A DNA stretch of 64,000 nt. It comes from a virus. Taxonomy: Duplodnaviria > Heunggongvirae > Uroviricota > Caudoviricetes. This document shows, in pieces, positions 48,258 through 64,000 of the stretch; the first letter of the stretch is position 1; every line of letters begins with the position of its first letter. The notes under the pieces are model-generated. The model ran no database searches. It worked only from the letters and a program-made list of their open reading frames with translations, and had not been told where the DNA came from. The DNA lies in IMG/VR virus record IMGVR_UViG_3300033692_000022; one strand, given 5' to 3'. Made by a program: the position numbers and the translations under genes.

Positions 48258-51200
48258 ATGCCAGCATATGAAGATAATACAAGGCAGTATTTAAACGATG
48301 ACTCTAATTATATAAGTTCTTCTGACACCAGAGATAGGCTGCAGCAGAAAGAGGGAAGTATTTTAACTCCGCTCCTTAAATTAGGGGCGGCTGCTGCAGG
48401 AGCCTATGGTGCGTACCGATCAGGGCTTTTAAAAGCTCCCCTTGGATTTCTTACTAAAGGGGCAGGCCAGTACAGGTCCAGATATGTAGAAGGACCAGTA
48501 TCTGGTATAAAAAGATGGGTTAATAATTTCGGAGCGAAAAACAACAAGACCTTAAAAGAAGAAATCTCCGATGAGATGACACGCCTTGCTGAAAAACAGA
48601 GTGACGAATTGCACGGTAAGGCAAGTGAATTTGAAAGTCTCTTACTGGAGAAGGAAAGAACCTTAAGGCAGGTAGAAGAAACTGCTAAGACAGAGTTAAG
48701 ATATAACGAAACAATGGCTTATCTCAGAGAAGAGATGAGTGAGGACGGCATAGGCCAGCTCGAAGAGGAATTAAGAACCGGGCCATCTGGAATGCGTCAG
48801 CTATTAAACGATGCAGAGCTCGACCAGAGACTCAATGAAAAACTTGGCCAGTCGGATTATGATGCTTTTCTAAATAGGCCTGATTATTCAAGCGGAACAA
48901 GTGAGCTTGAGCAGGAGATAATAGATAAAAACAGACGCTTTATCGAAGAACAGTATGAGAAAGAATTAAATGAGAAGTTTTTAAGTACAACAAATAAAAC
49001 AGAACAGACTACAGGTTTAAATAAACTTACAGTAAGAGATATATATGAAAGAAGGCTGGCGCAAAATCAGGGCCAGATAGAAACAAAAAGAGGTATGGAA
49101 GAGTTCAATGTCTACGACGAGATAGAAAGACTCGCCGCTAAGAACGAAGATGTCTGGGAGATGTCAGCAGGTAAGGGGCTATTAAAAGATAGTTCTGATG
49201 GCATAGTAGACTTAAGAGATATCGGACAGACTGCAGGTAAGGTAATGAACTCTCTTACCTATGATTTTAAGATTCCATTTGTAAACTTCAATCCTCTGCA
49301 GATGCTTCACCTGCAGGATATATCAATGAAGAGAAATGCCCCTTCTTTTTCTATATTATCAGCGGGGCAAAAGCAACCAATAGTATCGAGTGAGGCCTTA
49401 AATGAATCACTAGTCTATGCTGGAGGCTCAGTACAGAGAATACTTTCTCCAGACAGCGGCCCTATAGCAACTGATACTTATCTAACATCTAATAGATTCG
49501 GTATGATGTCTAGGATAACTAACGAGCTTGCTGGTGATTCAATAGTAGAGAGACCGAAAAGAAACGGTCTCAAAGGATTTTTAGATAAGGTTAAAAACAC
49601 ATTCGATATCTTTCAGCAGGATAGAGCCAGTATATTTGGAGAATACAAATCTGTATTTTCTAAGTTTGATGATGATGACTGGATAAGAAATAAGACAGAG
49701 GCTTTAGTGAGCTCCAATGACTTCGAAAAAGCCTCCAAGTCAGTAGAAGATGTAAGGTCATTTTTAGACCAGCACGCGTCAGGATTCAGAGATGAAGTAT
49801 GGGACGCCTTAGATGAAGAAGTAAATAAGGTATTCCACGACCTTGAAGATTTCGATCTGCGTGATGATGATCAAGTAATCGATGTAATAAAAAGACTGGC
49901 GACAGATAGTAATGTTCAGGTATCTGATAAATACAGATCACGCATTAAGGCTACATGGAATAGGTATGCTAAAAACCCCGAGCAGTTTAAAAAGGGTAAA
50001 AGGATATTAAGCAACCAGTCTGCTGTTGATAGACTGCATAACACAAAAGTAATATCCAATGTAGATGACGCCAGAAAACTAATAGCAAAAGAATTTATCT
50101 ATAGAAATGGTACTAAAAGTTCAGTAGATTTAGTATCAAAATTGGACAGCCTAAAGACTGCAAAAAAGATAACAGTCGGCGGATACAGAGATGCCGTAGA
50201 AACTATAAACTCTACGGTCTTTGATGACTTAAGCCTGCCCGGCATGAACCAAACAAAACAGGACGCAATAAGGCAGACTGTAAACTTTTACCGTTCAAGT
50301 GGTAAGAGAGCTAAGATACACAGACAAAACCTAATAGATATAGTTGACAGTAAGACAAGACCATGGCAGAAGGGTCCATCTGCTAATTTCGGTAACATGC
50401 CAAGCTCTGACTGGCTGTTAATGAATAAGGCAGTATCTCCTAAGAAAGCTATTAAGTCTAAAGAGAATGCTTCTAAGTTTGTCCAGCAGTTTATTGCCGG
50501 TAGAAAGAACATGAAAGATGTAACAACTGCAACCACTGTTCCTTTTTATATGTTCGAGAGATTAAACAGTGGGCTAGCAATGTTCGGACTAGGCTTATCT
50601 GGCCGCTCTATGAGCTCGCCACAGGCCATGTACGGGAACTTAATCACTAAAAGGGTTCTACCGGTCGTTGGACTTATAGGAGCCGCTAAATACGCCTCCT
50701 ACGAGTATGAGAAGGCAACCGGTGAAGGCCTAGATGACGAGGCTGCCGACTTCGGAGCCAGAGTAAAATTAGATGTCGCAAAACTTAGAGATGCAACAGG
50801 TGCTACAAGTGTATTCCAGAGAATAGATCAGCTCACTCCAGGTAGTGAACATCTATCCGAGATACCAGGGCCCAATTTCTTCGACTTCACTAAAACTGAA
50901 GAAGAGGTCAAGGAAGATCTAATAAGAGGAAGAGACCCGGTTAGAAAGGGTAGATACTGGCCCTTTGGTAATACACCATTTACTGGTGGCAGCATAGAAT
51001 ATTACCAGCCTAACTGGTACAGAAGAACTAAGAGCGACTATAAATATACCGATGTGCAGTACGGGTCTAAGGACGAATACTGGGAGAATGCAGCAGTACC
51101 AACTCCAAGATACCCACTTGCTCCAGTAAGACATTTCGTAACAGATCCATATCACTACGAGAAAAAGCACTATGAAGATAGACCATACCCAATGACAGGT

Positions 51201-53849
51201 AAGATGGGTTATGAGATACCACTTATAGGACCTGCGGTATCTGCAACAATAGGAGAAATACTAAAACCCCAGAGGAAAATGCACGTTGAGGATATGCAGT
51301 ATTCTGAAGGTACTCAAGAAGGTACTGGTACTAATACTGTAAAAAGTACTAAAAAAGGTACTGATAAGGTTACTGGTAAATATGTTCAGAAGCCAGAAAA
51401 GAGTTCGGTACCAGAAGGTGAGGAGCTATATTATGTTCCTCCATCCAGCATGCCTACCAAAAAGAGAGTAATATCTCAGGGCGAATTGAATATAGAAGAG
51501 ATTAATAAACAGATTAAAGAAGACGCCAAGAAGAAAAACTTCATCACAATGCGGCCTAAGTTTGACGACAATGAAGTAGAAGTGGACGCGGCAGAGCCCG
51601 GCAGTAAAAACTCAGCCAAGTACATCTCTAGTGAGCTCTACTACAGAGCCTCAGAGATGGCAGGTTTTTATGGGTTTGGAATAAGTGAGTTAACAGGTCA
51701 GGGCGGAATAGAAGAGCCCGTACTTGCAACTGCAGACGATATGAACTCTTACAGAAGAGCATTCTGGGATATGAACTTAGGTGGTCTCGGTGGAGAGTTG
51801 TCTGAGATTACAAGACGTTTTATCCCCAATAGACCATATGCTCAAAAAGAAGCACAGATAAACCCAATCAGAAACAAGATGCCTAACTGGATGCCGGGAT
51901 CAGATTACTTTGTTAACTTTAAGCAGGGTGATCCATTCACTAAGGTACCAAAAGGCGAAATGAGACTACCCGGTGAAGGTTATGAAAGCATTAATGAATT
52001 ACATCCAGATAAGTACGGCGAAAAGTACGGTTCATTTGATAGATTTAAGATACTGGCAGATGTGGCTCCATACAGTCAAGAATATGAATACTATAAAGAA
52101 ATCATAGAAGAAGATGACGACCTCCCAAGCGATTTAAAAAAGAGAGCTGCACAGATAAAAAGAGAAGTAACTCAGAAGAAAAAGAAGCGAAGATTTTTCC
52201 CCTACCGCTTCAAGACTGCCAATATCAAAAAAGAAGAAGTTACAGTATCTAAATTTTTAGATTCAAATAACTTCATGACTGAAGAATATCCAGATACTCC
52301 TATTAGGCTTGCTGGTCTTTATGTCAGTACGGCAAAAGATAGCAAAAAAGCTCAGAAAGCAAAAGACTATATTAGTAAAAGAATAAAAGAAGGAAAGAAT
52401 GTAACCATAGGAATAAACGAAGATAAGTTAAACCGTGTTCGTGATGATACCTATGGAACAATGCACGCTGTAGTCTATGTTGATGGTGAAAACTTAAACA
52501 GAGAGCTTTTAGAAAGAGATCTGGCCAAGGAAAAAGATAGTGACTATTCTCCAGAGGCTGTGCACGCAAGATTTTCTGGTGCAGAAATAGCAGCAGGCAA
52601 AGCATGGGAGACATTTGCTCACATGGATACTCCTGCTCATACAAAGTTCTTACAGACCAGATCACCACTCGAATCATACAAGAGAAGAGATGTCTACGGT
52701 AAGGACTGGCAGAGTTGGTCTGATCCTGTAGAAGATTTCCTTGTTCCAACTTATGAGAGTTTTATAAATAAACATCCGGCCAAAGCCGTGGTTTCAGGAG
52801 CACTTTTAGGTTCTCTATTCGGAAGAACAAGACGCGGTAAGGTAATAGGAAGTTTAGTCGGTGCTTTAACGGTCGGAATAGGAGCTCTAACCAGAAGTAC
52901 TAAAGAGCAGTTAAGTGGAGAAAAATGGATACCAGAACGGATAGAAAAAAGAAGAGAAATAAATAAATACTTCGACATCTTAGAATATGTTAAGTATAAG
53001 GGCCTCTATGAAAAGACAGTAGATAAGGCTAAAGAAAAAAACATAGATGTCGAAAAAAGAATAAATGAGTATGCTCAAAGCTCGGAAAAACTCAAAGAAG
53101 AAAAGTCCAAATTGGTACGGGAAAAAAGAGAGCTTTATCGCAAGGGCACCTCAAAAGCTAAAGAAGAGATATCAAAGATTAATAAGCGCCTTAAAGAGCT
53201 GGCCCTTGAGAGAAAAGAAATCGTAGAACTAGATGAATATACAGCTCAGGCCTTAGAGTATAGAGAGAAATACAAGTCAACACTTCACGGTGCCGATCTT
53301 GGAGGTTCGCTGCAGAAAATATTCGGAGCGATACCAAATCCAGAGAGAAGATATTTCTCAGAGTTTTTAGAGGCACCAGAAGAAGAAAGAGACGAAATAG
53401 AAGAGCTGGTACCAGATAATGTTCGCCGCTTCCTACAGGCTCACTGGGGTAAGACTCCAGACGAAAAGGAGTCGCTCAAGTCCTACTTTAAAAAGTATAA
53501 ACTTCCAGACAAAAACTGGGAGGGCTGGGAGGCAGACACCGAGCTTGAGGACATAAAGATAAAAGTAGTCCAGAGCGAAGGCGAGGACACATTAGAATAC
53601 GGGTACTGGGATGATGATATAGAACAGGCAACACTAAGAGGAGCAGAGCCTGTTGACTATAAAGAAGATACGCCCGATGCTGATCTGACTACAAGGCTTC
53701 AGTCAGTACTTGAAGGTGAAGGAATAAATGATTTAGTTATAGAGGTCAATGGAGATAGAAGCGGCGGAGACCTCGTTCAAATAGATTTAAAAAAGGACAG
53801 ACGACAGGAAATTAAAGACAGACTAAACCAAGAAGGAATATCATTCTAA
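48258..53849 (+). CDS. tape measure protein with embedded thermonuclease (SNase)-like domain
   Basis: 1863 aa directly after the frameshifted chaperone; hydrophobic Gly/Ala segments; IRLAG...DDTYG..HAVVYVDGENLNRELL at about aa 1328-1423. Confidence 0.8.
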   Translation: MPAYEDNTRQYLNDDSNYISSSDTRDRLQQKEGSILTPLLKLGAAAAGAYGAYRSGLLKAPLGFLTKGAGQYRSRYVEGPVSGIKRWVNNFGAKNNKTLKEEISDEMTRLAEKQSDELHGKASEFESLLLEKERTLRQVEETAKTELRYNETMAYLREEMSEDGIGQLEEELRTGPSGMRQLLNDAELDQRLNEKLGQSDYDAFLNRPDYSSGTSELEQEIIDKNRRFIEEQYEKELNEKFLSTTNKTEQTTGLNKLTVRDIYERRLAQNQGQIETKRGMEEFNVYDEIERLAAKNEDVWEMSAGKGLLKDSSDGIVDLRDIGQTAGKVMNSLTYDFKIPFVNFNPLQMLHLQDISMKRNAPSFSILSAGQKQPIVSSEALNESLVYAGGSVQRILSPDSGPIATDTYLTSNRFGMMSRITNELAGDSIVERPKRNGLKGFLDKVKNTFDIFQQDRASIFGEYKSVFSKFDDDDWIRNKTEALVSSNDFEKASKSVEDVRSFLDQHASGFRDEVWDALDEEVNKVFHDLEDFDLRDDDQVIDVIKRLATDSNVQVSDKYRSRIKATWNRYAKNPEQFKKGKRILSNQSAVDRLHNTKVISNVDDARKLIAKEFIYRNGTKSSVDLVSKLDSLKTAKKITVGGYRDAVETINSTVFDDLSLPGMNQTKQDAIRQTVNFYRSSGKRAKIHRQNLIDIVDSKTRPWQKGPSANFGNMPSSDWLLMNKAVSPKKAIKSKENASKFVQQFIAGRKNMKDVTTATTVPFYMFERLNSGLAMFGLGLSGRSMSSPQAMYGNLITKRVLPVVGLIGAAKYASYEYEKATGEGLDDEAADFGARVKLDVAKLRDATGATSVFQRIDQLTPGSEHLSEIPGPNFFDFTKTEEEVKEDLIRGRDPVRKGRYWPFGNTPFTGGSIEYYQPNWYRRTKSDYKYTDVQYGSKDEYWENAAVPTPRYPLAPVRHFVTDPYHYEKKHYEDRPYPMTGKMGYEIPLIGPAVSATIGEILKPQRKMHVEDMQYSEGTQEGTGTNTVKSTKKGTDKVTGKYVQKPEKSSVPEGEELYYVPPSSMPTKKRVISQGELNIEEINKQIKEDAKKKNFITMRPKFDDNEVEVDAAEPGSKNSAKYISSELYYRASEMAGFYGFGISELTGQGGIEEPVLATADDMNSYRRAFWDMNLGGLGGELSEITRRFIPNRPYAQKEAQINPIRNKMPNWMPGSDYFVNFKQGDPFTKVPKGEMRLPGEGYESINELHPDKYGEKYGSFDRFKILADVAPYSQEYEYYKEIIEEDDDLPSDLKKRAAQIKREVTQKKKKRRFFPYRFKTANIKKEEVTVSKFLDSNNFMTEEYPDTPIRLAGLYVSTAKDSKKAQKAKDYISKRIKEGKNVTIGINEDKLNRVRDDTYGTMHAVVYVDGENLNRELLERDLAKEKDSDYSPEAVHARFSGAEIAAGKAWETFAHMDTPAHTKFLQTRSPLESYKRRDVYGKDWQSWSDPVEDFLVPTYESFINKHPAKAVVSGALLGSLFGRTRRGKVIGSLVGALTVGIGALTRSTKEQLSGEKWIPERIEKRREINKYFDILEYVKYKGLYEKTVDKAKEKNIDVEKRINEYAQSSEKLKEEKSKLVREKRELYRKGTSKAKEEISKINKRLKELALERKEIVELDEYTAQALEYREKYKSTLHGADLGGSLQKIFGAIPNPERRYFSEFLEAPEEERDEIEELVPDNVRRFLQAHWGKTPDEKESLKSYFKKYKLPDKNWEGWEADTELEDIKIKVVQSEGEDTLEYGYWDDDIEQATLRGAEPVDYKEDTPDADLTTRLQSVLEGEGINDLVIEVNGDRSGGDLVQIDLKKDRRQEIKDRLNQEGISF
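51308..51373. repeat. 6/12-bp periodic GTAC array inside the tape measure gene
   Basis: aggtac tcaaga aggtac tggtac taatac tgtaaa aagtac taaaaa aggtac. Confidence 0.5.
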
Positions 53850-53864
53850 TAAGGGGTGAATTTG

Positions 53865-56800
53865 ATGGTAGACGAGTTAGGATTCAACACAGAAAACAAA
53901 AGAGGCTCCATCTGGAATCAAATGGATCAGGAGACCAGAGAGAGTCTTAATTATAAGGGCTTCTTTAGTGGTAGTGAACTGCCAAATTCAAACCCCTTTT
54001 ATGTTCCTTTTAAAACTGTGGGTAGAAACACAAATAGTTATACGTTCAATAACGGCGATGCCTACTCACAGCTACATAGCAACTTAATAAATACTCTGCA
54101 GAATAGAAGAAATCACGATCAGGCAATACTGGATGTAAGTGAGTTTAATAACAGAATGCTTGATAGATATAGAGGAACCTCAAGGTCTGAGACAAGACAG
54201 GCCAAATTGCAGTGGATTAAAGACCAGGGTATTGAAAACTATGACAGCAATGCAAGAGACTGGAGCTGGAAGAGAATATATAAGATATACGGGCAGGATG
54301 TTGATGTAGACATCTGGCGTAATGTCAATAACATGCACGAGCGTAATAAGCCACAGCAGGCTATTGAGTCATATATTAACTACAGGTCTGGTAATCAGTC
54401 TGCGGTATTTTTTGACCTTGAAACATTCGGTAGTTTTAATCAGAACACTGGAGAGATAAACGGATTCTTTATGCCCTACCAGGCAAGTTTTAAGGAAGCA
54501 CGCTTTGTAAATGGTAGAGTACAAAAGGGCTCAACCAGAAACTTCCTTATAGACCCAAGCCAGACTAAAGCAATGCCTAAGATACAGCAGGCTATAGACA
54601 AGCTCAAAACTCAAAAAGAAACTGGAGTAACACAGGCCTTAACCGATAGCGAATACAGGGCAGTCAGAGATTTAATCAAAATAGGAGATGCTGATGTCAA
54701 AAACGGAGAGATTAAAAATCTACCTAAATGGGTTGATGATGTACTCCCAGAAGGGCAGGTGCAGGATTTAAGTGCATATCTTGATAAGGCTGAAGAGGGC
54801 CTATTAAAACTGACAGAAGAGGGTAACAGTCCAGAAGAACTTATCAAATACTGGAACGATATTTCAGAAGACAACATGGTTGCAGGACATAATGTTGCAA
54901 ATTACGACATACCAGGACTTAAATTATTTGCGACAAATGAAGGTCTTGGAATACATGACACTGATAACTATTTTGATACAATGCAGCTATTTAGATCAGT
55001 ATCTTCAAATCCAGAAGAAGATATCTACGGCGGCAAGAACCCCACAGATAGTGGAGACTTAACACTTGATGCCCTACGAAGTAGATACAACCTAGAGAGT
55101 ACTGATGCTCATACTGCCTCATATGATATAGATTCTTTAATAGATGTATTAGATGAAGGTAAAGACGACATCGACTCAAGACTCAATATAATGCTTTATA
55201 AAAATAACGAGAATACAGATGAAGTTATTGAAAGAATAAATAAGAATATATATGAATTAGAAGCAGGGCAGAAAGATTACGGCTTACACAGCTATCAAAG
55301 TCCCTACCAGGAAGAACTTGATAGAGCTTTCGAAAAAGATATAGACAAAATTAACCAGCTAAAAAGAGCAAGAACAAGTGTCGAAGATGCAGCTAAAAGA
55401 CACGACTCCTTATTTTCTATAGACAATGAATCAATAAGAACAGGAGATATACTCTTCGCCCAGCAGGGGCAGCACGCTTACCGAGAAGCTGCAGCTGATA
55501 TGGTATTAGAAAAAGACGGCGAAGATTTAATCAAAAAAGACTTCCCTAAAGTATCTGTTAGAAAGAAATCATATTACAGGGTCTCGGATTCATTTGAAGA
55601 CCAGGGAATGCACAATCTTGTACTGGAGAATCTATCAACAGAAGATGTGCATGTTATAAGCCGTGAGAACAAATCAGATCTTCAAAACTATGTACAGAAA
55701 ATGTTTAACTATGAAGGCAGAGGATTAGACGAGGACGAGCTTGCAGAAAAGGTAGCAAGAGCAAACGATAATTATCTTGACGATCTGGCCAGAACAAGAT
55801 ACAGGAAACTCTTTTCTGGTGAGGATAGATCTTTTAGAAATTTAAAGATGTTCTATGATGCTGTAGATATTGAAGATGAGTCGGCATTAAGAGAACACTT
55901 CAATTCAGAACAGCAGTTAAGAGATTTTAATAGAATGAGGGACAGACTTGAATCTGAAGCAGATGTCGTAAGACCTGCTCTGCAGGAAATAGAAAACCAA
56001 TACGGCAGAGAAAGCAGTTATTCGGATAAAGCCGTCATTCAGGTTAAAAGAAAATTAGATATGGAATTTGGCCCACATAAAGAGAATGCAAATCTTTTAG
56101 ATTTTGAAAGAAAGGGTATTGATATCCCAACCTTTGACGGCGGCAAGACAAGTCTAAACATTCCAGACTTTGAAACAGGAAGTAAAAACCTGTGGTGGAC
56201 AGTATATAACGAAACCAAAGGCCGAGACAAAAGGGCCAGAGAAATTTACATGAACGATATTCTAAATAAACTCGAAAGAGATCAGGTAATAACCAGCCAG
56301 AAAAGAGCGCGGCTGCAGGAAAAGCAGAATATTAAGTATCAGATAGAAGGCTTAATAGATGACTTAATGAGAAACGATTCGATAGATAAAGCCGAAAATG
56401 GCCTCAAAGTAGACTCACTTAAAGCAAGAGAGTCGATGCTTAAGGGTGACGAAGCCGTACAAAAAGGCAGGAAGATAGGAAGCCAGACAGTTGAGTTCAT
56501 GAATAAGACAATGTACGAGGGCGATTTCGTCCAGAGTGAACTTGACAGGATGTCTAAAGAGGCAAGTAGATATCTTCCCGAAGGATTCGATTATGACTTT
56601 AACCAGAACGTAAAAGATATATCAGCCAAACTCACAGCCCAGAATGGGGTTGGATATTCTATAAGTTTCACTGACAATGGTAATTTAATGCTTGCTGTAG
56701 CTGATGAGGGAAGCATAGAAGAAGTAGAAAGAGGATTACTCAGGGGAAGACCAAGTAAAAAGGCAGCTTATCTGGAAATACCTATGCCAGATGAAAAGGG

Positions 56801-59800
56801 CCTATTAAGACAGAAGAGTATTACCAAAACCCCACAGGGATACATCAAAAGAGACTGGAGGAACCCGGGCCAGTACCATCTGAAGACAACTTCGGATGAA
56901 ATAGTACAGAACCTAACCTATAAGAGCAGACTGGATAAAGTATCAAGATATCTGGAAGAAGGAGACATAGATAGCGTTCAGAAGGAGCTCAATAGGGCGG
57001 TAAACTCAGTACTCGAAGAACTTCCAGATACCTCAAAGGGTACAACGACCACAAGTAGTTATACTACTGTTGCAGATGCACTAAAGCAGACTCATATAAA
57101 TGCTTCTGAAATGGGTAGAGAGTTAATAACCGAAATGGGTATTGACCAGCAGGACTTTTATAGAGACCAGCTTGCAGGCATGAATAAGGGACAGCTTGAT
57201 CTGCATGATTTAAGACTTGCAGATCAGATGAAAGTAATCAAAGAAATGCCAGATTTTATCGAGCGCAAAACAGGTATTAAAGTAAACGCAGCTTCTATTA
57301 AAGGTTCACACATCTCAGATGCTAAGTTTGCGACAGAAGACGTAAGAACACTAAAACCACTCTCGCCTTATTCAGCAGCCACAAGACCTAACCCAATTCA
57401 GATGCAAAGACACTACCAGTTAGAAGATAGCGCACTGGATCTTATAAATAGAACAGATAGTCTCTCTGTTGGTCAGGATATAGTTACCGATCAGCTTAGA
57501 GCGATTGAAGATAGATACGATATGAAACCATCAAGTGTATCAATGAATGTTGCTCTTACAGATAATATAACCTTAGAACAGCTTTATCAGGATAATGAAA
57601 TAGATAAAAACTTCATAACTCAGGCCAGCACCTATGAAAACACTGCTGTTATGAGAGAGTCACAAATGGAATTATTCAATGCAAGACAAGTTAAATCAAT
57701 GAGTATGCCAGATGTCGCTCCAGAAAATATCGAATATAGCAACAAAGTAATGAGAGCACTTGATAATGGAGAAGAAGTTGCGGTAGAACCTAAAGAGATT
57801 ATCGCTAAATATATAGATGACAGCGGCCTCGAAAAAGAGATAAGATACACTGAAGAAAATAGAGGGGTAATCTCAAATGTAGACCTGACTCCAGGCAAAG
57901 AAAGACTTGAGATAGCAGTTGAACGCCCCGGTGAGACTTCAATGAAGTTAGATGTTGAAGGAGAAAAGGTAACAGTAATCCCAATGGCCGATGAAACAAT
58001 GGATAAGTTTTTTGGCAAGGATATCTCAATGGCTTATGCGAGTAATATCGAAAAGCACGAGGACTTTGGAGCTCCTATTATCGGACAGATAAACAGAATA
58101 ATGGATGATATAAATAAATATGATGGCGAAGATAGAGCAACAGAGAAAAGACAGTTCATAAGAAGATTTAATGACATATTCGGACAGGATTTAACTGAAG
58201 ATAATTTTACTGAAGTTAATGGTAGATCTGTCTTACAAATAGATGGTGACTTAGAAAAATGGAAGAAAGAAATAGACCCCACTAAAGTTCAAGATATGTT
58301 AGATGAATGGGGCATAAGTGAAGTAGAAGAAACTTCAAGTGGCCGTAAATACATCAAGCAGCGGCAGGCTGTAGGACGACAGATAGTCGATGAACACGAA
58401 AGAGTAATGTCAGCTTACGGTAGAGTCCCAAGCTGGGATGTGCAGGATGTTGGAGTTAAATTCGGACCTCGACAGACATTTGCTGTAGAAGAGTTGTGGG
58501 GCTTTAAAGAAACTGCAAAATACATCAGACAGAACGCAGGAAAAAGAAATGGAGATATAGATAGGGTCGCCCGAGGATCCTGGAATGCAATCCAGTATAT
58601 GATTGAAGGTACTCCAGAATTTGCAAACCCGGCAGAACCAGAAGAATTTAAAACAGCAGTCCGCGGGGTCAGAGGTTATACTGAAGATACATTACAGGGT
58701 ACAGTAATTAGTCCAGATGAAGGCACATCAAGGTTTATGAAGTTGCCAGAAGAGCTGACAATAGATGATGGTGCCGGCAACAGGGTAAGTATAGACAGCG
58801 TATTCATGCCAGAAAGGGATCTCGGTAAAGTAGGGGACGGTAGAGTAGAACTTGATAAGATACAGGGAGCTCAGACCAAGATACACGATCTGGCCATGGA
58901 AATGAAAGAAAGACGTAGAGTGCCTGACGGACAGGATGTGTCGAAGCTCAGATCTTTTGAAGAGATTCGAATGGACATGAAAAGGACAGTAGAAAATTAC
59001 TACTCAGAGCTTTCCGATTCTATCGCCGGTAAAGAAAGCGACATAGCAAAAGGCCTTACATCAAGAATGCCAGCATCTGGCCACGGTAAGATTAGAATAA
59101 TGAGTCCAACAGTTAAGACTGCAGAAAGTACATTTACCGAATCGGATTGGAATGAAATACTGCAGGCAGATGAAGATAAGGCTTACGATATATTCCAGGC
59201 TAAAAGAAATAAATATGAAAGAGAGCTCGGAGAAGAAATATTAGAAGAAAATACTATCTATATTTCAAAGAAGAGAGCCAAAGAACTTGCAACAGACAGA
59301 GTAAGCGGTAAAGTCAGCGATAAACTGTTAAGAGATATGTCTGAAGAAGGCGTATATGGGCTTGGTATTAGATACCCTATGTTCTTTAAAGAGGCAGCGC
59401 AGCCTGTAAAGATTAAAACACACAAAGATGTATATAAAAATGATATGTTCATGACAGCAGGTACCGCTGATATCCTAAACGCCGATAGTGATGGTGATAA
59501 GGGTGCCTTCGTCTTGATGCGTGAGTTTATAGAAGGCAGAACAGAAGACGGAGAGCAGATATTCGAAAGAACGGAAGCCTCAAGAAGATCTGAAGATGAA
59601 ATAAGGGATGTTTTCAGGTCGAAAGAACAGATCAGAAGACGCTTCGAACAGGGCCAGAATGCGGCCAGAGATTACATTAATAAGACAGCCGGCACCAATG
59701 AAGAGTTTATTCGCAACTTGGATAGTAACATAAGGAACTATAAGGCAGACGGTAACCTACAGACACTTGATAGATTAGTGCCAGATGGAGTCAGCGGATT

Positions 59801-61010
59801 CCAGGTTAAAGTAGGCGGGGAAGCAGAAAACGCTATAATGCACGCCAAGCTCGGAAAGAAAGGTATCGGTTATCTTTCTAACATCAACATGAAGATTAAA
59901 CAGTTGGCCAAGGGAGTAGAAAATAAAAACTCCAGAGTATTCAATCAGTTATTTAATGATATAGATACTGGCCCGGGCGGAGCTTTTGGTGCTTTAGAAC
60001 AGTTCGGTACCACATTAGAGCAGAACTTTATCGATGTTAAGCACGATGATTTAGATGCAGCATTCGGTAAAGATCAGGCAGCTCATATTTCAATGGATGT
60101 CGGGTCTGCTATTAATAGAGGCGACTTTGATTTCTTAAGGAGTATCAAAAGTAAACAGACTGGCGAGGCTATTTTCGATGAAACCTCATTAAATGTTGCT
60201 GAAAGATTCCACTCAGCTATGAAACAGACTGACACATGGTACGCTCCAGAGACAAAGGCCTTTCTAAGTACTCAGATGAAAGATTACGGAGGAGGAGCCG
60301 CAGGAGTTTACGAAATGCTTAAAGGAGCTCAGTCTGGAGATACAGCTATTACTCCATATCTTGAAGATATACTGGGAGCAACGGGAGTAAGTGAGTCAGT
60401 AGACAGTAAGGTAATAAACCAGCTTAAAAATATTAAACCTCAAAGTGTTGGGGATTCTGTTGCTAAGTCAGCCATCAATGCAACACCGGTCGGCGCAACA
60501 ACCAATACTATAGAGGGTAGTATAAATAAGGCAGCCAAAAGTGCAGTAGGAAGCACAAAGAAGTTACTTAAGGGAACAGGACTGGTAGCAGCCGTAGGAG
60601 CTGGTGCTTATGCTGTAAGTCACTTCTTAAGAGATGACCCAATAACTCCAGAGAGTATGCCACAGCATAATGAGGCCCCAGATGTCACAGGTAACTATGA
60701 ATCTAAAGGTTACAAAGTAGAAAGACAGAGACAGCAGGAAGAAAAAGCTCGTAGACCACAGGGCAATAAAAGAGTTAACACCGATTCCAATCAGGCCTAT
60801 GTCCAAAATAATCAGGGCAAAAACATCAAGATAAAAGGAAGCGGTAATGTAGATACAGAAAGAGTAAGCTCTCTAATCCAGCAAGAAATGGAAAGGTCCG
60901 GTCGCAGTGGAGAGATAAACCTAAACATCAATGATAATACATCAGAGATAAATAACCAGTGGATGCAGGAGAAAGTAGCAGCAGCAATGAATGACGGGTA
61001 CGTTAATTAA
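53865..61010 (+). CDS. single-chain two-barrel RNA polymerase fused to an N-terminal DEDDh exonuclease, probably virion-packaged
   Basis: FFDLET / GHNVANYD / AHTASYD (DEDDh); MQR, YEN, KLDVEGEK, DISM..(beta-like); LSDSIAGKES..SRMPASG, RYP, NADSDGD (beta'-like). ATG 53865 follows AAGGGGTG. Confidence 0.85.
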   Translation: MVDELGFNTENKRGSIWNQMDQETRESLNYKGFFSGSELPNSNPFYVPFKTVGRNTNSYTFNNGDAYSQLHSNLINTLQNRRNHDQAILDVSEFNNRMLDRYRGTSRSETRQAKLQWIKDQGIENYDSNARDWSWKRIYKIYGQDVDVDIWRNVNNMHERNKPQQAIESYINYRSGNQSAVFFDLETFGSFNQNTGEINGFFMPYQASFKEARFVNGRVQKGSTRNFLIDPSQTKAMPKIQQAIDKLKTQKETGVTQALTDSEYRAVRDLIKIGDADVKNGEIKNLPKWVDDVLPEGQVQDLSAYLDKAEEGLLKLTEEGNSPEELIKYWNDISEDNMVAGHNVANYDIPGLKLFATNEGLGIHDTDNYFDTMQLFRSVSSNPEEDIYGGKNPTDSGDLTLDALRSRYNLESTDAHTASYDIDSLIDVLDEGKDDIDSRLNIMLYKNNENTDEVIERINKNIYELEAGQKDYGLHSYQSPYQEELDRAFEKDIDKINQLKRARTSVEDAAKRHDSLFSIDNESIRTGDILFAQQGQHAYREAAADMVLEKDGEDLIKKDFPKVSVRKKSYYRVSDSFEDQGMHNLVLENLSTEDVHVISRENKSDLQNYVQKMFNYEGRGLDEDELAEKVARANDNYLDDLARTRYRKLFSGEDRSFRNLKMFYDAVDIEDESALREHFNSEQQLRDFNRMRDRLESEADVVRPALQEIENQYGRESSYSDKAVIQVKRKLDMEFGPHKENANLLDFERKGIDIPTFDGGKTSLNIPDFETGSKNLWWTVYNETKGRDKRAREIYMNDILNKLERDQVITSQKRARLQEKQNIKYQIEGLIDDLMRNDSIDKAENGLKVDSLKARESMLKGDEAVQKGRKIGSQTVEFMNKTMYEGDFVQSELDRMSKEASRYLPEGFDYDFNQNVKDISAKLTAQNGVGYSISFTDNGNLMLAVADEGSIEEVERGLLRGRPSKKAAYLEIPMPDEKGLLRQKSITKTPQGYIKRDWRNPGQYHLKTTSDEIVQNLTYKSRLDKVSRYLEEGDIDSVQKELNRAVNSVLEELPDTSKGTTTTSSYTTVADALKQTHINASEMGRELITEMGIDQQDFYRDQLAGMNKGQLDLHDLRLADQMKVIKEMPDFIERKTGIKVNAASIKGSHISDAKFATEDVRTLKPLSPYSAATRPNPIQMQRHYQLEDSALDLINRTDSLSVGQDIVTDQLRAIEDRYDMKPSSVSMNVALTDNITLEQLYQDNEIDKNFITQASTYENTAVMRESQMELFNARQVKSMSMPDVAPENIEYSNKVMRALDNGEEVAVEPKEIIAKYIDDSGLEKEIRYTEENRGVISNVDLTPGKERLEIAVERPGETSMKLDVEGEKVTVIPMADETMDKFFGKDISMAYASNIEKHEDFGAPIIGQINRIMDDINKYDGEDRATEKRQFIRRFNDIFGQDLTEDNFTEVNGRSVLQIDGDLEKWKKEIDPTKVQDMLDEWGISEVEETSSGRKYIKQRQAVGRQIVDEHERVMSAYGRVPSWDVQDVGVKFGPRQTFAVEELWGFKETAKYIRQNAGKRNGDIDRVARGSWNAIQYMIEGTPEFANPAEPEEFKTAVRGVRGYTEDTLQGTVISPDEGTSRFMKLPEELTIDDGAGNRVSIDSVFMPERDLGKVGDGRVELDKIQGAQTKIHDLAMEMKERRRVPDGQDVSKLRSFEEIRMDMKRTVENYYSELSDSIAGKESDIAKGLTSRMPASGHGKIRIMSPTVKTAESTFTESDWNEILQADEDKAYDIFQAKRNKYERELGEEILEENTIYISKKRAKELATDRVSGKVSDKLLRDMSEEGVYGLGIRYPMFFKEAAQPVKIKTHKDVYKNDMFMTAGTADILNADSDGDKGAFVLMREFIEGRTEDGEQIFERTEASRRSEDEIRDVFRSKEQIRRRFEQGQNAARDYINKTAGTNEEFIRNLDSNIRNYKADGNLQTLDRLVPDGVSGFQVKVGGEAENAIMHAKLGKKGIGYLSNINMKIKQLAKGVENKNSRVFNQLFNDIDTGPGGAFGALEQFGTTLEQNFIDVKHDDLDAAFGKDQAAHISMDVGSAINRGDFDFLRSIKSKQTGEAIFDETSLNVAERFHSAMKQTDTWYAPETKAFLSTQMKDYGGGAAGVYEMLKGAQSGDTAITPYLEDILGATGVSESVDSKVINQLKNIKPQSVGDSVAKSAINATPVGATTNTIEGSINKAAKSAVGSTKKLLKGTGLVAAVGAGAYAVSHFLRDDPITPESMPQHNEAPDVTGNYESKGYKVERQRQQEEKARRPQGNKRVNTDSNQAYVQNNQGKNIKIKGSGNVDTERVSSLIQQEMERSGRSGEINLNINDNTSEINNQWMQEKVAAAMNDGYVN

Positions 61011-61031: not shown

Positions 61032-64000
61032 ATGAGTGAAGAAGATAAGACATTTTATGGACAATCAAATATATTATCACATTCAGCAAAGTACACTATA
61101 GAGCCAGTAAATGATTTAGATGAGGTGCACGGCTCTCCAAGTAGCCCTTACTTTCTGAGGCTGGGGGACGTTCAGTTTATGATTCCCCCTACCTCTATCC
61201 GTACCGATAAGGTATCAAAGACACAAAAGAGTAAGACCTTAAGAGGTAAGGGATCTGTAAAATATGGTGGAGGCCAGAGCACAACAAGACTTACTATCGA
61301 TATTTACTTTAATAATATCAACTCAATCAATGGGTATGAGATAGGTAATCCAATGGCTGCTAGTGATGCAGTAAGGGATGAAGATAGATTCTATTATATA
61401 GACGGACTGAGAAGTTTAATAGCTCAGTTTAATAACGCACCATTTTTACCTATTGAAAACGAGTTTATCAATAATGTACTTGGAATAGATGCAGTTACCC
61501 TACAGGGACTGGAAGTAAATACAATAGAAGGATTCCCTAATACTTTAAAGTGCCAGCTTACAATGTATGAGTTTAACTACAGAACATATCTACCATGGAT
61601 AGATGAAGTAATCCAGATAGATACAATGAATATTTTCAAGCACGCATTTAACTGGCCACTATTTAGGTACTACTACCAGAAGAATATAGACGACTACAAA
61701 AAAATAGAAAAGGCGGAAATAGACGACAGTATAACTTTCAGTAAGATATCCGAACAGGCCCTCAAAGAAAGAAGAGAGGCCAGGACCAAGCTGAAAGAGG
61801 ACAAAGATAAATACAATAAGAAATTTTCAGAAATAGCAAAAGAGATGGGAAAAAAGAACTCGGAATTAGTTGAGGCCAGAGATAAATATTTCGATGCTAA
61901 AAAAGAATTCCTTCATATATATAAGACTTACGACAATATAGAATATTTAACAGCAAGAGATATGATGAGTGCTCTAGGAAATAGCATGCCCGAAAATATA
62001 CTAACAACTGGAGACGATAAGGGTGGAGCCTTAATTAAAACTCCTTCTAAAAAAGTATTAGAAACTGCTGCAGAAAATAATAGACTAAGAAGAAGAGAAT
62101 ATAACGAAATAATAATTTACTTCGAGGGTCATCCAAAACATAACGAGGATGACAAGGTTTTAATAGAACTACTGGAAAATATAGAAAGAAAAGATATAGA
62201 AGCTGAAGCACTTAAGAGAAGTAATGAGCTTCAGAACGATAAGGTAAAGTATGAAGCCCTGGCTTCTAAGGATGAGGGAGACATGGAGATGGAAGAAATA
62301 CCACTCGATGATCTATATCTTAAGAGGTTGAACATAAAGCAGGAGAATATAGTAAGTGAAATAAGACTTGATGGCCAGACAGAACCAGCACATCAATATT
62401 TCGGCTCTCAGGATGTATTAGGATACGCAGAATTTCAGGCAACAAGCAGGGAAACTGTTGCTATCTTTAAGAATATGCTTGATGAAACAAATGCTAAGAT
62501 TCAGGCCTACAGAGACGAAATAATGCCAGGTTTCCTTAAGGTAGATAATGACCTTTTAAATTTATTTGGCGTAGAAAATATTGTTATAGAGGCCTGCACT
62601 ATTTCAACCACTAACAATCCAGAAGTATTCAGTATAAATCTTACATTCTATGAATTTGATATAAATCAGAAAGATAAAGAAAGTCTTGATAAAACAAGCG
62701 GTAATACTGAAGAAACATACAAGAGACCAGATAAGGAAGATCTTGAAATAAACACAGCTGTTCAATCAATAAGAAATCAGCTTTTACTAAAGAAAAGACT
62801 GATGGAGAAATCACCGTTCCCAGATCTAAACCTTCCCACAATTAAAGAATTTAAAGATGTGCTTAATAGGCACCCTAAAAACTTAGGGACCGTACATCGT
62901 GAGATTGAGGGTAATTATGTAGATCCAGACTTCTACATTATGACCTTAGCTGACCTTAAAGATTATATTCTTAAGTCAATCAATTCAGAAGGTAAGATAC
63001 TGATGAGAGACAACTACGGTCAGCAGACCGAATACGATATTCCAAATGGTAAAAATAGTGGATCGATGTATATAGAACAAGGCAGTCAGTCAACCTATGA
63101 AAAGATAATAGAAGAAGCTCAAAAAGAAGATGAAAGCTATAAGAAATTAAATGATTTTCCTGTAACTGAAGATGACGAACACGGAACTAAGATGGTATCA
63201 CCTCTTTTTAATGGTAATACTCACTCTATAAATATAAAAGGTAAAAATATACCATCAGTAAATGATAGACTTTATGGAATGCTGCATGATCTGATGAAAT
63301 ATTCTCACCAGGGAAGACTATCGAGAGCTTTCCCCAGTTTCCACATCTCCTTTATTGAAGAAGGAGAGGAGATGGATAACTACAGATTATGGGATAACCT
63401 TTATGGAATAAACGGTATAACTTCAATAGATATAGTAAGAAGTAGAAAACAAGCTGCAGATATCTGCTACCTTGAAATCTCGAACATCTACGATAATTTA
63501 TACAGTGATACAACAGAAGATGTTGACTTAGATGCAGACGAAGAATATAGCTGGTGGAATTATTTTTCTGATGATATGTCTATTGAGATGATAGAAGATC
63601 ACATGGAAGTAAAAGATAGATTAAATATACTCCCGGGCGCAAGAATACAGGTTAGAAATGGATATGGCTCCAACCTAGAAAGTATGCCTTTAGTATTTAA
63701 CGGTACAATAGCTGAAATCAATGCTACAAGAAAAGTGCAGATAGTAGCTCAATCTGATGGGGCAGAACTTACAAATGTCATCCCTGCTGATAAAGATGAC
63801 TCAACAGGCAGGCTTGATTTTGGAGTAGAGCCACAGGATATTATAATGGAGATCCTCAAAGAAGAGCAGAGTCTAATCAAAGAGGGAATCAATAAAATAA
63901 CACTTGGTAAATTTATGGAGCAGAAACACTTAGGAATAAAGCACTTCGGTCAAAAAAGACATGTCTGGAAAGAAGCTCAAACCCAAAACTTTTTAAATAA
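61032..64000 (+). CDS. large baseplate hub-like tail protein, runs off the window end
   Basis: ATG 61032 after GGGGTG; frame still open at 64000; PGARIQVRNGYGSN..VFNGTIAEI..VQIVAQSDG hub-like pattern near the end. Confidence 0.65.
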   Translation, partial: MSEEDKTFYGQSNILSHSAKYTIEPVNDLDEVHGSPSSPYFLRLGDVQFMIPPTSIRTDKVSKTQKSKTLRGKGSVKYGGGQSTTRLTIDIYFNNINSINGYEIGNPMAASDAVRDEDRFYYIDGLRSLIAQFNNAPFLPIENEFINNVLGIDAVTLQGLEVNTIEGFPNTLKCQLTMYEFNYRTYLPWIDEVIQIDTMNIFKHAFNWPLFRYYYQKNIDDYKKIEKAEIDDSITFSKISEQALKERREARTKLKEDKDKYNKKFSEIAKEMGKKNSELVEARDKYFDAKKEFLHIYKTYDNIEYLTARDMMSALGNSMPENILTTGDDKGGALIKTPSKKVLETAAENNRLRRREYNEIIIYFEGHPKHNEDDKVLIELLENIERKDIEAEALKRSNELQNDKVKYEALASKDEGDMEMEEIPLDDLYLKRLNIKQENIVSEIRLDGQTEPAHQYFGSQDVLGYAEFQATSRETVAIFKNMLDETNAKIQAYRDEIMPGFLKVDNDLLNLFGVENIVIEACTISTTNNPEVFSINLTFYEFDINQKDKESLDKTSGNTEETYKRPDKEDLEINTAVQSIRNQLLLKKRLMEKSPFPDLNLPTIKEFKDVLNRHPKNLGTVHREIEGNYVDPDFYIMTLADLKDYILKSINSEGKILMRDNYGQQTEYDIPNGKNSGSMYIEQGSQSTYEKIIEEAQKEDESYKKLNDFPVTEDDEHGTKMVSPLFNGNTHSINIKGKNIPSVNDRLYGMLHDLMKYSHQGRLSRAFPSFHISFIEEGEEMDNYRLWDNLYGINGITSIDIVRSRKQAADICYLEISNIYDNLYSDTTEDVDLDADEEYSWWNYFSDDMSIEMIEDHMEVKDRLNILPGARIQVRNGYGSNLESMPLVFNGTIAEINATRKVQIVAQSDGAELTNVIPADKDDSTGRLDFGVEPQDIIMEILKEEQSLIKEGINKITLGKFMEQKHLGIKHFGQKRHVWKEAQTQNFLN

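Follow-up and report, generated by a model that had tools for sequence, protein, structure and literature searches.

A DEDDh exonuclease is a fixed part of a family of giant single-chain RNA polymerases found in a phage tail module

RNA polymerases of the cellular type are thought to correct themselves and to restart through their own active site only, helped by Gre or TFIIS. Several phage enzymes with a two-barrel core have been described. YonO, a minimal phage polymerase without intrinsic RNA cleavage (PMC5467207), and phi14:2 gp66, which comes from a crAss-like phage and is packaged in the virion within a giant protein, both fall in the QDE-1/RdRP-like clade (PMC10770324). Precedent for a virion RNA polymerase fused to a tape measure comes from gp96 of the Thermus siphovirus P23-45, in which an N-terminal polymerase precedes a true tape measure of ~3800 residues and for which no exonuclease is mentioned (PMC10770324). 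The nonvirion RNA polymerases of phiKZ and AR9 (8QUE, 7OGP, and 7S01) are each divided among four or five subunits; they lack an exonuclease, and their genes lie outside the tail module. Bacillus phage 0305phi8-36 encodes gp146, a "hypothetical tape measure protein" of 2537 aa that was found in the virion by mass spectrometry, and has a separate YonO-like polymerase, gp99 (PMC2147016). Here, we analyzed a 64,000-nucleotide stretch of the genome of an uncultured jumbo phage of the Caudoviricetes (IMG/VR record IMGVR_UViG_3300033692_000022; hereafter, the window) in which one giant gene encodes both a two-barrel RNA polymerase core and a DEDDh exonuclease domain.

The giant gene lies in an uninterrupted reading frame that runs from a GTG at 53856 to 61010 on the plus strand. 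Translation probably begins at the ATG at 53865, which is preceded by a ribosome-binding site and gives a product of 2381 aa; residue numbers used here count from the GTG (2384 aa). An identical 2381-aa protein was retrieved by database look-up from two contigs and three sources. The upstream neighbor, also a giant, is 42% identical to gp145 of 0305phi8-36 and 32% identical to gp096 of WH1, and has a weak Pfam SNase match. The downstream giant resembles the 0305phi8-36 hub protein gp147, WH1 gp094, and KLEB27-3 gp035, and matched PHROG 20474 (endolysin) with an E value of 3e-136. This order of genes, with the exonuclease-polymerase between a gp145-like giant and a baseplate hub, puts it in the slot of 0305phi8-36 gp146, and the tail-module position is kept in two metagenomic contigs as well as in KLEB27-3 and WH1, both cultured Bacillus phages. 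Homologs were annotated by their depositors as "structural protein" (KLEB27-3 gp034) and "virion structural protein" (WH1 gp095). Coordinates of all features are collected in Table 1.

Table 1. Features of the giant gene, its product, and its neighbors in the window (residues numbered from the GTG at 53856)
Feature	Residues	Position	Strand	Basis or remark
Upstream neighbor, giant gp145-like virion protein, 1863 aa		48258..53849	+	Sequence similarity
Giant exonuclease-RNA polymerase gene		53865..61010	+	Single open frame, RBS AAGGGGTGA
DEDDh (DnaQ/RNase T-type) 3'-5' exonuclease domain	~163-445	54342..55190	+	Model, profile, fold
Exo I, FFDLET (D187/E189)	185-190	54408..54425	+	D and E identical in 17/17 full-length members
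Helical segment between strands 3 and 4	240-339	54573..54872	+	Confidently modeled helices
Exo II, GHNVANYD (N346/D351 invariant)	344-351	54885..54908	+	Aligns with PolC-exo HN-anFD
YFDTM (D374), xDT strand after Exo II	372-376	54969..54983	+	Aligns with PolC-exo IDT
Exo III, AHTASYD (H419/D424)	418-424	55107..55127	+	Identical in 17/17; aligns with PolC-exo HHRALDD
Middle region, conserved in family, D643 invariant	450-1129	55203..57242	+	Family alignment
RNA polymerase beta-like half	1130-1565	57243..58550	+	Fold match
RNA polymerase beta'-like half	1800-2100	59253..60155	+	Profile, Pfam
RYP motif (R1839/P1841)		59370-59378	+	R and P identical in 17/17
NADSDGD (D1877/D1879/D1881)	1875-1881	59478-59498	+	DxDxD triad identical in 17/17
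C-terminal module, Gly/Ala-rich weakly hydrophobic segment and conserved tail	2216-2384	60501..61007	+	BLASTP
Downstream neighbor, giant baseplate-hub protein, runs past window end		61032..63998	+	Similarity, PHROG

Motifs, profiles, fold, and conservation all identify the N-terminal domain as a complete DEDDh exonuclease, which is predicted to be active. An initial annotation had assigned Exo I, II, and III motifs with catalytic residues D187/E189, D351, and H419/D424, as well as YFDTM and LTLDAL signatures; all of these were recovered, the catalytic residues exactly at the numbers it gave when counted from the GTG, and LTLDAL at 402-407. The span that it proposed (54405-55127) does encode the exonuclease, but the folded domain is wider, extending past both ends. 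Exo I and Exo II are separated by 164 residues, ~70 more than in usual DEDDh exonucleases (the distance is ~91 residues in E. coli epsilon). The helical segment between the two motifs carries a family motif, LTxxExRTLxDLxKYS, in which R268 and L273 are nearly invariant.

Assignment to this class was consistent across methods. Pfam RNase_T (PF00929) scored 23.4-23.8 bits on the window domain, against a gathering cut-off of 24, and matched four of 18 family members (best E value, 6e-8), while PHROGs 192 and 403 (DNA polymerase exonuclease subunit) matched the domain. A family profile compared with the PDB matched PolC-exo (2p1j; E value, 2e-6), a TREX-like nuclease, and ExoI. The AlphaFold model, with a core pLDDT mostly >90, matched only DEDDh structures in Foldseek and VIA searches (Foldseek probability, 1.00), with Z scores of 13-15 against RNase T, epsilon, PolC-exo, ExoI, DinG-exo, and TREX1/2. 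Individual values were 15.2 for ExoI, 13-14 for RNase T, and 14.6 for epsilon (2gui; rmsd of 2.6 Å, 169 of 176 residues). The nearest relatives by sequence and fold are mostly DNA exonucleases (PolC-exo, epsilon, ExoI, and TREX), with RNase T and ERI1 scoring nearly equal. Seven motif residues, namely, the D-E-D-H-D set together with N346 and D374, do not vary among the 17 full-length family members, and invariance of the catalytic residues at an overall identity of 14-26% argues for an activity retained under selection.

The same chain carries a single-chain two-barrel RNA polymerase core, with the beta-like half first and the beta'-like half second. For the beta-like half, the top Foldseek matches listed were all second-largest RNA polymerase subunits. 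Residues 1-435 of the model of this half aligned with the C-terminal beta subunit of the phiKZ nonvirion RNA polymerase (8que_C; Z score, 18.1) and with AR9 (7s01_C; 17.7), and Z scores of 17-18 were obtained both with bacterial beta (residues ~547-1300) and with the C-terminal halves of beta/Rpb2 across 300-390 residues. R1177 is invariant, 16 of 17 members have K1364, and K1371 or a neighboring R occurs; a sequence profile of this region gave no meaningful match in the PDB. The beta'-like half was recognized by profile: with residues 1780-2100 of the family, the 60 PDB matches listed, out of 106, were all beta'/Rpb1 chains aligned at the RxP...ADxDGD barrel, the top ones being AR9 (7s01_d; E value, 3e-5), Pol V, and phiKZ, with bacterial beta' chains also matched. 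Pfam RNA_pol_Rpb1_2 matched six of the 17 family members. The selectivity loop of the family follows the pattern RxPx(I/L)(H/N), with RYPTIH or RAPVIH in relatives; the window protein reads RYPMFF. It is of the RNA polymerase type and not the PolD type, as defined by the motifs RxPxLH and GLAPHT, respectively (PMC7708050), and the family's R is equivalent to beta' Arg425, the residue chiefly responsible for choosing ribose over deoxyribose (PMC7862312).

The remaining parts of the chain are less readily classified. Fusion of the exonuclease to an RNA polymerase, as the initial annotation had it, was borne out. The exonuclease is not directly adjacent to the polymerase core; ~680 residues lie between it and the recognizable core. 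This middle region gave no Pfam, PDB-profile, or Atlas match in the window protein, and one relative (P0003) has helix-hairpin-helix DNA-binding motifs there. The C-terminal module is conserved with KLEB27-3 gp034 as well. A single-sequence PDB search returned no match. Complex prediction of the exonuclease domain with the beta and beta' pieces gave a score of 0.00, which makes no call either way.

Co-occurrence of the two domains, for which a survey of homologs had been suggested, extends to every full-length family member. An exhaustive search identified a further 16 full-length giants of 2127-2509 aa that share 14-26% identity, and both active sites (D-E-D-H-D of the exonuclease; R, P, and D-D-D of the polymerase) are kept together in 17 of 17 full-length members. 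A DnaQ/RNase T-type exonuclease near the N-terminus is a fixed part of this giant polymerase family. The initial annotation had raised a fusion absent from relatives and created by misassembly as one case that would undo its claim; recovery of the identical protein from independent sources and of both domains in 16 relatives excludes such an artifact. We hold the architecture and the enzyme identities (exonuclease fold and catalytic pentad, beta-like fold, and beta'-type barrel) with high confidence. Word-based homolog searches returned only the window protein itself and P0022, a distant relative of 1410 aa with a beta'-type barrel and no detectable exonuclease, and a scan of IMG/VR for relatives gave no match. 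Three further candidates were set aside: P0014 (341 aa), which might be taken for a stand-alone exonuclease, is truncated by its contig edge and lies after a gene for a 2019-aa gp145-like protein; P0005, with 150 aa, does not reach the length of the complete domain and is likely a fragment; and P0011 is an unrelated repeat protein that was removed from the family set. The pairing of exonuclease and polymerase is unusual and apparently undescribed, as no account of a two-barrel RNA polymerase with a fused exonuclease was found in the literature searched, including work on P23-45, crAss, YonO, and LUCA and a jumbo-phage survey.

By analogy with the P23-45 gp96 model, the protein is likely a virion RNA polymerase delivered by injection, which would exit the tail together with the DNA and transcribe the first phage genes. 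The exonuclease would then act beside the polymerase on free 3'-OH ends, trimming the nascent RNA 3' end when it is mispaired or extruded by backtracking, and so might stand in externally for cleavage by Gre or the trigger loop in a minimal polymerase. An injected polymerase would be present in few copies and may be unable to use host Gre factors; such an editor could have evolved because a few-copy enzyme cannot afford irreversible arrest. The lack of intrinsic RNA cleavage in YonO offers a rationale for adding a nuclease to a minimal polymerase. The proposed arrangement would resemble that of coronaviruses, in which the DEDDh exonuclease ExoN serves the viral RNA polymerase. Taken as a whole, this reading, a virion-borne injected polymerase with an exonuclease that edits RNA 3' ends, falls just short of an even chance. 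Editing of nascent RNA 3' ends or rescue from backtracking is our tentative preference over DNA-end processing as the job of the exonuclease, although we give it somewhat less than even probability, and the specific form in which the domain is a dedicated external editor, removing misincorporated or backtracked RNA 3' ends as they emerge from the NTP-entry pore, is rather doubtful. Several observations count against the favored reading: the ~680-residue gap, the mostly DNA-acting nearest relatives of the exonuclease, the polymerase barrel of P0022 with no detectable exonuclease, and the selective value of proofreading short-lived early mRNAs, which is not obvious.

Alternatively, the exonuclease might act on incoming phage DNA and not on RNA, resecting 3' ends at the termini for repeat annealing and circularization or concatemer formation, or trimming the entering end so that the polymerase can load. 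Long terminal repeats are typical of 0305phi8-36-type genomes, the best sequence matches of the domain are DNA polymerase proofreading exonucleases and ExoI, and a tail-module protein would arrive where and when the DNA end does; the DNA-binding helix-hairpin-helix motifs of P0003 lie between the two enzymes. Such a role would, however, leave the fusion to a polymerase in every member unexplained, and 3'-5' digestion that starts at the entering end would remove the very strand that serves as template for inward transcription. For the same reason of strand polarity, resection that exposes single-stranded promoters, one of the roles put forward in the initial annotation, fits poorly and was down-weighted. 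We regard DNA-end processing as unlikely, and as quite unlikely a further scheme in which exonuclease and polymerase are independent passengers on an injected carrier, the exonuclease attacking, within a payload of nucleases, host nucleic acids or the nucleic-acid parts of defense systems at entry. Here, the precedent lies in the surrounding proteins, since the gp145-like neighbor weakly matches staphylococcal nuclease and such a domain is found on a relative's hub (PMC2147016). The putative nuclease domain of the neighboring giant and the one on that hub make enzymes fused to ejected tail proteins a theme of the lineage. Against independent passengers, a few injected copies of a nonprocessive DEDDh enzyme would barely affect the host chromosome, and the fact that both active sites are strictly conserved together on one chain suggests a linked function. 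DEDDh enzymes also require a free 3'-OH, so cyclic signals would not be opened.

A polymerase and a DEDDh exonuclease in one chain are otherwise the hallmark of replicative DNA polymerases, and the two-barrel core of PolD makes DNA (PMC7708050, PMC7281927). The core could on these grounds be a DNA polymerase or primase-like enzyme with a classical proofreader, a phage analog of archaeal PolD and its exonuclease subunit, but we consider this very improbable: the selectivity loop reads RxP with an invariant R and has no PolD PHT steric gate, every fold or profile match listed was an RNA polymerase subunit and none was PolD, and the tail-module position suits a starter of transcription. Even less credible is a catalytically dead exonuclease kept as a structural remnant for folding or tail packing. 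The Pfam score of the window sequence just under threshold would agree with decay, but dead domains usually lose residues such as the five catalytic ones, N346, and D374, and here all of these are unchanged throughout the 17 members.

A family with a proofreading-type exonuclease in every member challenges the picture in which cellular-type RNA polymerases rely on their own active site only. If the domain is a dedicated external editor of RNA 3' ends, it would be the first exonuclease-based proofreading or arrest rescue known for the two-barrel RNA polymerase superfamily. A contractile-tailed jumbo-phage lineage would also join the few phages that apparently deliver a transcription enzyme of their own by injection through the tail. 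In KLEB27-3 and WH1, a Pfam search of both phages found the giant gene as the only Rpb1_2-like site, and a Pfam RdRP search detected no YonO/RdRP-type gene in either. Set against the YonO-like polymerase of 0305phi8-36, the giant tail polymerase of these two phages hints at an either/or pattern, with the two as interchangeable strategies for starting infection. A search for T7-type polymerases in relatives gave no signal, but its control was silent too. These results also indicate that two enzymes can lie concealed in a gene labeled "tape measure" or "structural protein." Three cultured Bacillus phages carry the gene, which makes the family a compact test system.

Comparison with described systems places the window protein among several partial counterparts. 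It occupies the slot of 0305phi8-36 gp146, a protein of similar size whose two flanking genes are clearly homologous to those of the window giant, and the sole region similar to gp146 is the C-terminal module (BLASTP of window residues 2216-2383 with gp146 residues 2376-2534; 24% identity; E value, 2e-7). The family HMM did not match 0305phi8-36 gp145, gp146, or gp147; since the link depends on one pairwise BLAST, a relationship to gp146 is only suggestive. Unlike the window protein, gp146 lacks both the DxDxD and the exonuclease motifs; it has no Pfam match. The non-virion polymerases of phiKZ and AR9 provided the best fold matches of the beta half (Z scores of 17.7-18.1) and were among the best profile matches of the beta' half. 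With YonO (SPbeta) and phi14:2 gp66, the window protein shares the presence of both barrels in a single polypeptide; those two proteins have no exonuclease domain.

On the exonuclease side, Pol III epsilon/DnaQ, the PolC exonuclease, ExoI, RNase T, and TREX1/2 have the same fold and the same D-E-D-H-D set, and the window domain differs in being joined to an RNA polymerase rather than to a DNA polymerase or helicase. Coronavirus nsp12 with nsp14 ExoN may be a functional analog in that the RNA polymerase is served by a DEDDh exonuclease; nsp12 belongs to the palm-type RNA-dependent enzymes, and no homology is implied beyond the DEDDh fold. Archaeal PolD offers another functional analogy, pairing the two-barrel polymerase DP2 with a separate exonuclease, DP1 (PMC7281927), although DP1 is a Mre11-type phosphoesterase and PolD makes DNA. 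P23-45 gp96 was absent among the sequence and fold matches listed, where cellular-type subunits took up the places. In the window giant, we identified no long tape-like region, and its gp145-like neighbor could be the true tape measure. The window protein and gp96 are nevertheless both giant tail-module proteins in the tape-measure position with a single-chain two-barrel polymerase and DxDGD (PMC10770324), and both are presumed to exit through the tail and transcribe the first genes. Unlike gp96, the window protein belongs to a contractile-tailed jumbo phage, has its polymerase toward the C-terminus with a beta half like that of cellular, phiKZ, and AR9 enzymes, and carries an added DEDDh exonuclease.

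The window protein, with residues numbered from the GTG at 53856, carries a complete DEDDh exonuclease that is almost certainly active. The initial annotation had called this domain intact from FFDLET (D187/E189), GHNVANYD (D351), and AHTASYD (H419/D424), plus the YFDTM and LTLDAL signatures; translation of the window ORF recovered all of these with the same residue numbers and coordinates, and the family profile, modelled fold, and catalytic conservation bear the assignment out. Pfam RNase_T scored 23.8 bits, slightly below its cut-off of 24 bits; PHROGs 192 and 403 ("DNA polymerase exonuclease subunit") matched the protein, and in NCBIfam the domain aligned with the exonuclease part of PolC from Gram-positive bacteria. 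An exhaustive phmmer search of 1.84 billion representatives with residues 140-480 returned 19 proteins, 16 of which were giants of 2127-2509 aa with the domain near the N-terminus. D187, E189, N346, D351, D374, H419, and D424 were identical in 17/17 full-length members (the window protein and 16 relatives), whose identity to the window protein is 14-26% over aligned regions. Against the PDB, the family profile matched PolC-exo (2p1j, 2e-6), a TREX1 homologue, ExoI, and DnaQ, with residue-for-residue alignment at Exo II, the xDT strand, and Exo III. The exonuclease core was confident in an AlphaFold model built on the family alignment, and only DEDDh enzymes matched it by Foldseek and VIA-align: ExoI (Z 15.2), epsilon 2gui (Z 14.6, rmsd 2.6 Å, 169/176 residues), and PolC, DinG-exo, RNase T, TREX1/2, and ERI1 (Z ~13-15). 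Between Exo I and Exo II, the family has ~70 extra helical residues, confidently modelled and with their own conserved motif.

In the polymerase, a single chain, the beta-like half precedes the beta'-like one, as is usual for single-chain two-barrel enzymes. A model of residues 1130-2240 (pLDDT 72) gave at least 500 Foldseek matches at E <0.001, the best 50 of which were all second-largest RNA polymerase subunits. By VIA-align, model residues 1-435 (protein 1130-1565) superposed on the C-terminal half of beta, matching phiKZ 8que_C (Z 18.1), E. coli and Vibrio beta residues ~547-1300 (Z 17-18), and AR9 7s01_C (Z 17.7). For the second half, a profile of residues 1780-2100 returned 106 PDB sequences; all 60 listed were beta'/Rpb1 subunits, the alignment fell exactly on the NRxPTxH...NADFDGD barrel, and the best among the matches listed were the AR9 non-virion polymerase (3e-5), plant Pol V, and phiKZ. 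Pfam RNA_pol_Rpb1_2 matched 6/17 members. DxDGD lies at the matching position in all full-length relatives but P0008, a relative with DADSD, and R-x-P lies ~36 residues upstream. YonO and QDE-1 are more distant from both halves than is the clade of cellular and jumbo-phage enzymes. The fusion itself, as first proposed, recurs across the family, with the DEDDh residues and R-x-P/DxDxD present together in all full-length members.

Features of the window around the exonuclease-polymerase gene
Feature	Window coordinates	Strand	Length
Giant ORF 1 (gp145-like)	48258-53849	+	1863 aa
Weak Pfam SNase match in giant ORF 1 (residues 1365-1446)	52350-52595		
Giant ORF 2 (exonuclease-polymerase)	53856-61010	+	2384 aa
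Stretch N-terminal to exonuclease (residues 1-162)	53856-54341		
Exonuclease domain	~54342-55190 (54405-55127 in the initial annotation)		
Giant ORF 3 (hub)	61032 to beyond window end	+	>989 aa

The window covers structural genes of the phage, with portal, protease, major head, and paralogous sheath and tube genes all on the + strand; the three giant ORFs come after the head, sheath, and tube genes. Giant ORF 2 has no internal stops. Its start codon is probably the ATG at 53865, which is preceded by the RBS AAGGGGTGA, and a protein identical to the 2381-aa product of this ATG has been recorded in two contigs and three sources. The stretch before the exonuclease, modelled with low confidence, is ~80 residues longer than in most relatives.

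Among cultured phages, the gene was found only in the Bacillus phages vB_BauM_KLEB27-3 (gp034, deposited as "structural protein"), vB_BceM_WH1 (gp095, "virion structural protein"), and Edson. WH1, KLEB27-3, and two metagenomic contigs share the order tail chaperonins, gp145-like giant, exonuclease-polymerase giant, hub giant, and small baseplate genes. The window neighbours are homologous (identity up to 42%) to gp145 and the hub gp147 of phage 0305phi8-36, between which lies gp146, which is annotated "hypothetical tape measure protein" and was identified in virions by mass spectrometry. No exonuclease motifs, DxDxD, or Pfam match were found in gp146 (L004:14623-22236), nor did the family HMM search recover it; its similarity to the window protein is confined to the last ~160 residues (pairwise E 2e-7). 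Although homology persists in the genes on either side, the gene in this slot was apparently replaced or has become too divergent to recognise. In 0305phi8-36, gp99 is a YonO/RdRP-type polymerase (PMC2147016), and no Rpb1-like site was found; in KLEB27-3 and WH1 the sole Rpb1-like site is inside the giant, and their genomes gave no Pfam RdRP (YonO-like) match. Three genomes give no more than a hint that the two are alternative polymerase supplies. The staphylococcal-nuclease family Pfam SNase matched the gp145-like giant weakly (21.5 bits, cut-off 21), so two neighbouring giant tail proteins may each carry a nuclease. Over 61032-63998, PHROG 20474 ("endolysin", E 3e-136) and, weakly, DUF6046 match the hub giant, whose homologue gp147 carries cell-wall-degrading domains.

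Two relatives are atypical. P0003, a metagenomic protein (L005:10001-17167), has helix-hairpin-helix (HhH) DNA-binding motifs above Pfam cut-offs at residues 538-603, in a stretch between exonuclease and polymerase that has no other assignment. P0022 (L008:2124-6356, 1410 aa) is a distant, shorter relative with RQP...ADQDGD and the C-terminal region, in which no exonuclease was detected; a 708-aa ORF upstream did not match the family. P0022 may be an exonuclease-less form, on a short contig of low coverage.

Of four roles considered for the exonuclease, we tentatively rank highest that it serves the polymerase by editing RNA 3' ends or rescuing backtracked enzyme. This is attractive because minimal phage two-barrel enzymes such as YonO can be without intrinsic cleavage (PMC5467207), because an enzyme injected in few copies could ill afford irreversible arrest, and because the two active sites are strictly conserved together on one polypeptide. 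A role in processing the genome's 3' ends as it enters, to which the DNA-exonuclease flavour of the domain's nearest relatives and the HhH motifs of P0003 would point, seems somewhat unlikely. Resection exposing single-stranded promoters, suggested in the initial annotation, seems unlikely, since 3'-5' digestion from the entering end would degrade the strand read in inward transcription.

Independent cargo directed against host nucleic acids is a less probable role than genome-end processing, although the possible nuclease in the gp145-like giant and the nuclease on a relative's hub (PMC2147016) are consistent with it. The selectivity loop makes it highly improbable that the chain is a DNA polymerase resembling PolD with a proofreader of its own. 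Multisubunit RNA polymerases have RxPxLH where PolD has GLAPHT (PMC7708050), and Arg425, the equivalent of the loop Arg, does most of the selecting for ribose (PMC7862312). R1839 and P1841 are invariant in the family, relatives have RYPTIH or RAPVIH, and the loop is thus of the RNA polymerase type. RNA 3'-end editing or rescue remains our preferred, provisional reading.

The literature searched, which included papers on P23-45, crAss gp66, and YonO, a jumbo-phage survey, and two-barrel reviews, gave no description of a fusion between an exonuclease and a two-barrel RNA polymerase. Injected tail-linked polymerases are already known; the giant family, its occurrence in contractile-tailed jumbo phage, and the obligate exonuclease were not. 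The closest precedent is gp96 of Thermus phage P23-45, in which a two-barrel polymerase is joined to the tape measure; gp96 is found in virions and carries out pre-early transcription, probably at the entry pore (PMC10770324). Judging from gene position and homologue annotations, the window giant most likely leaves via the tail, as presumed for P23-45 gp96.
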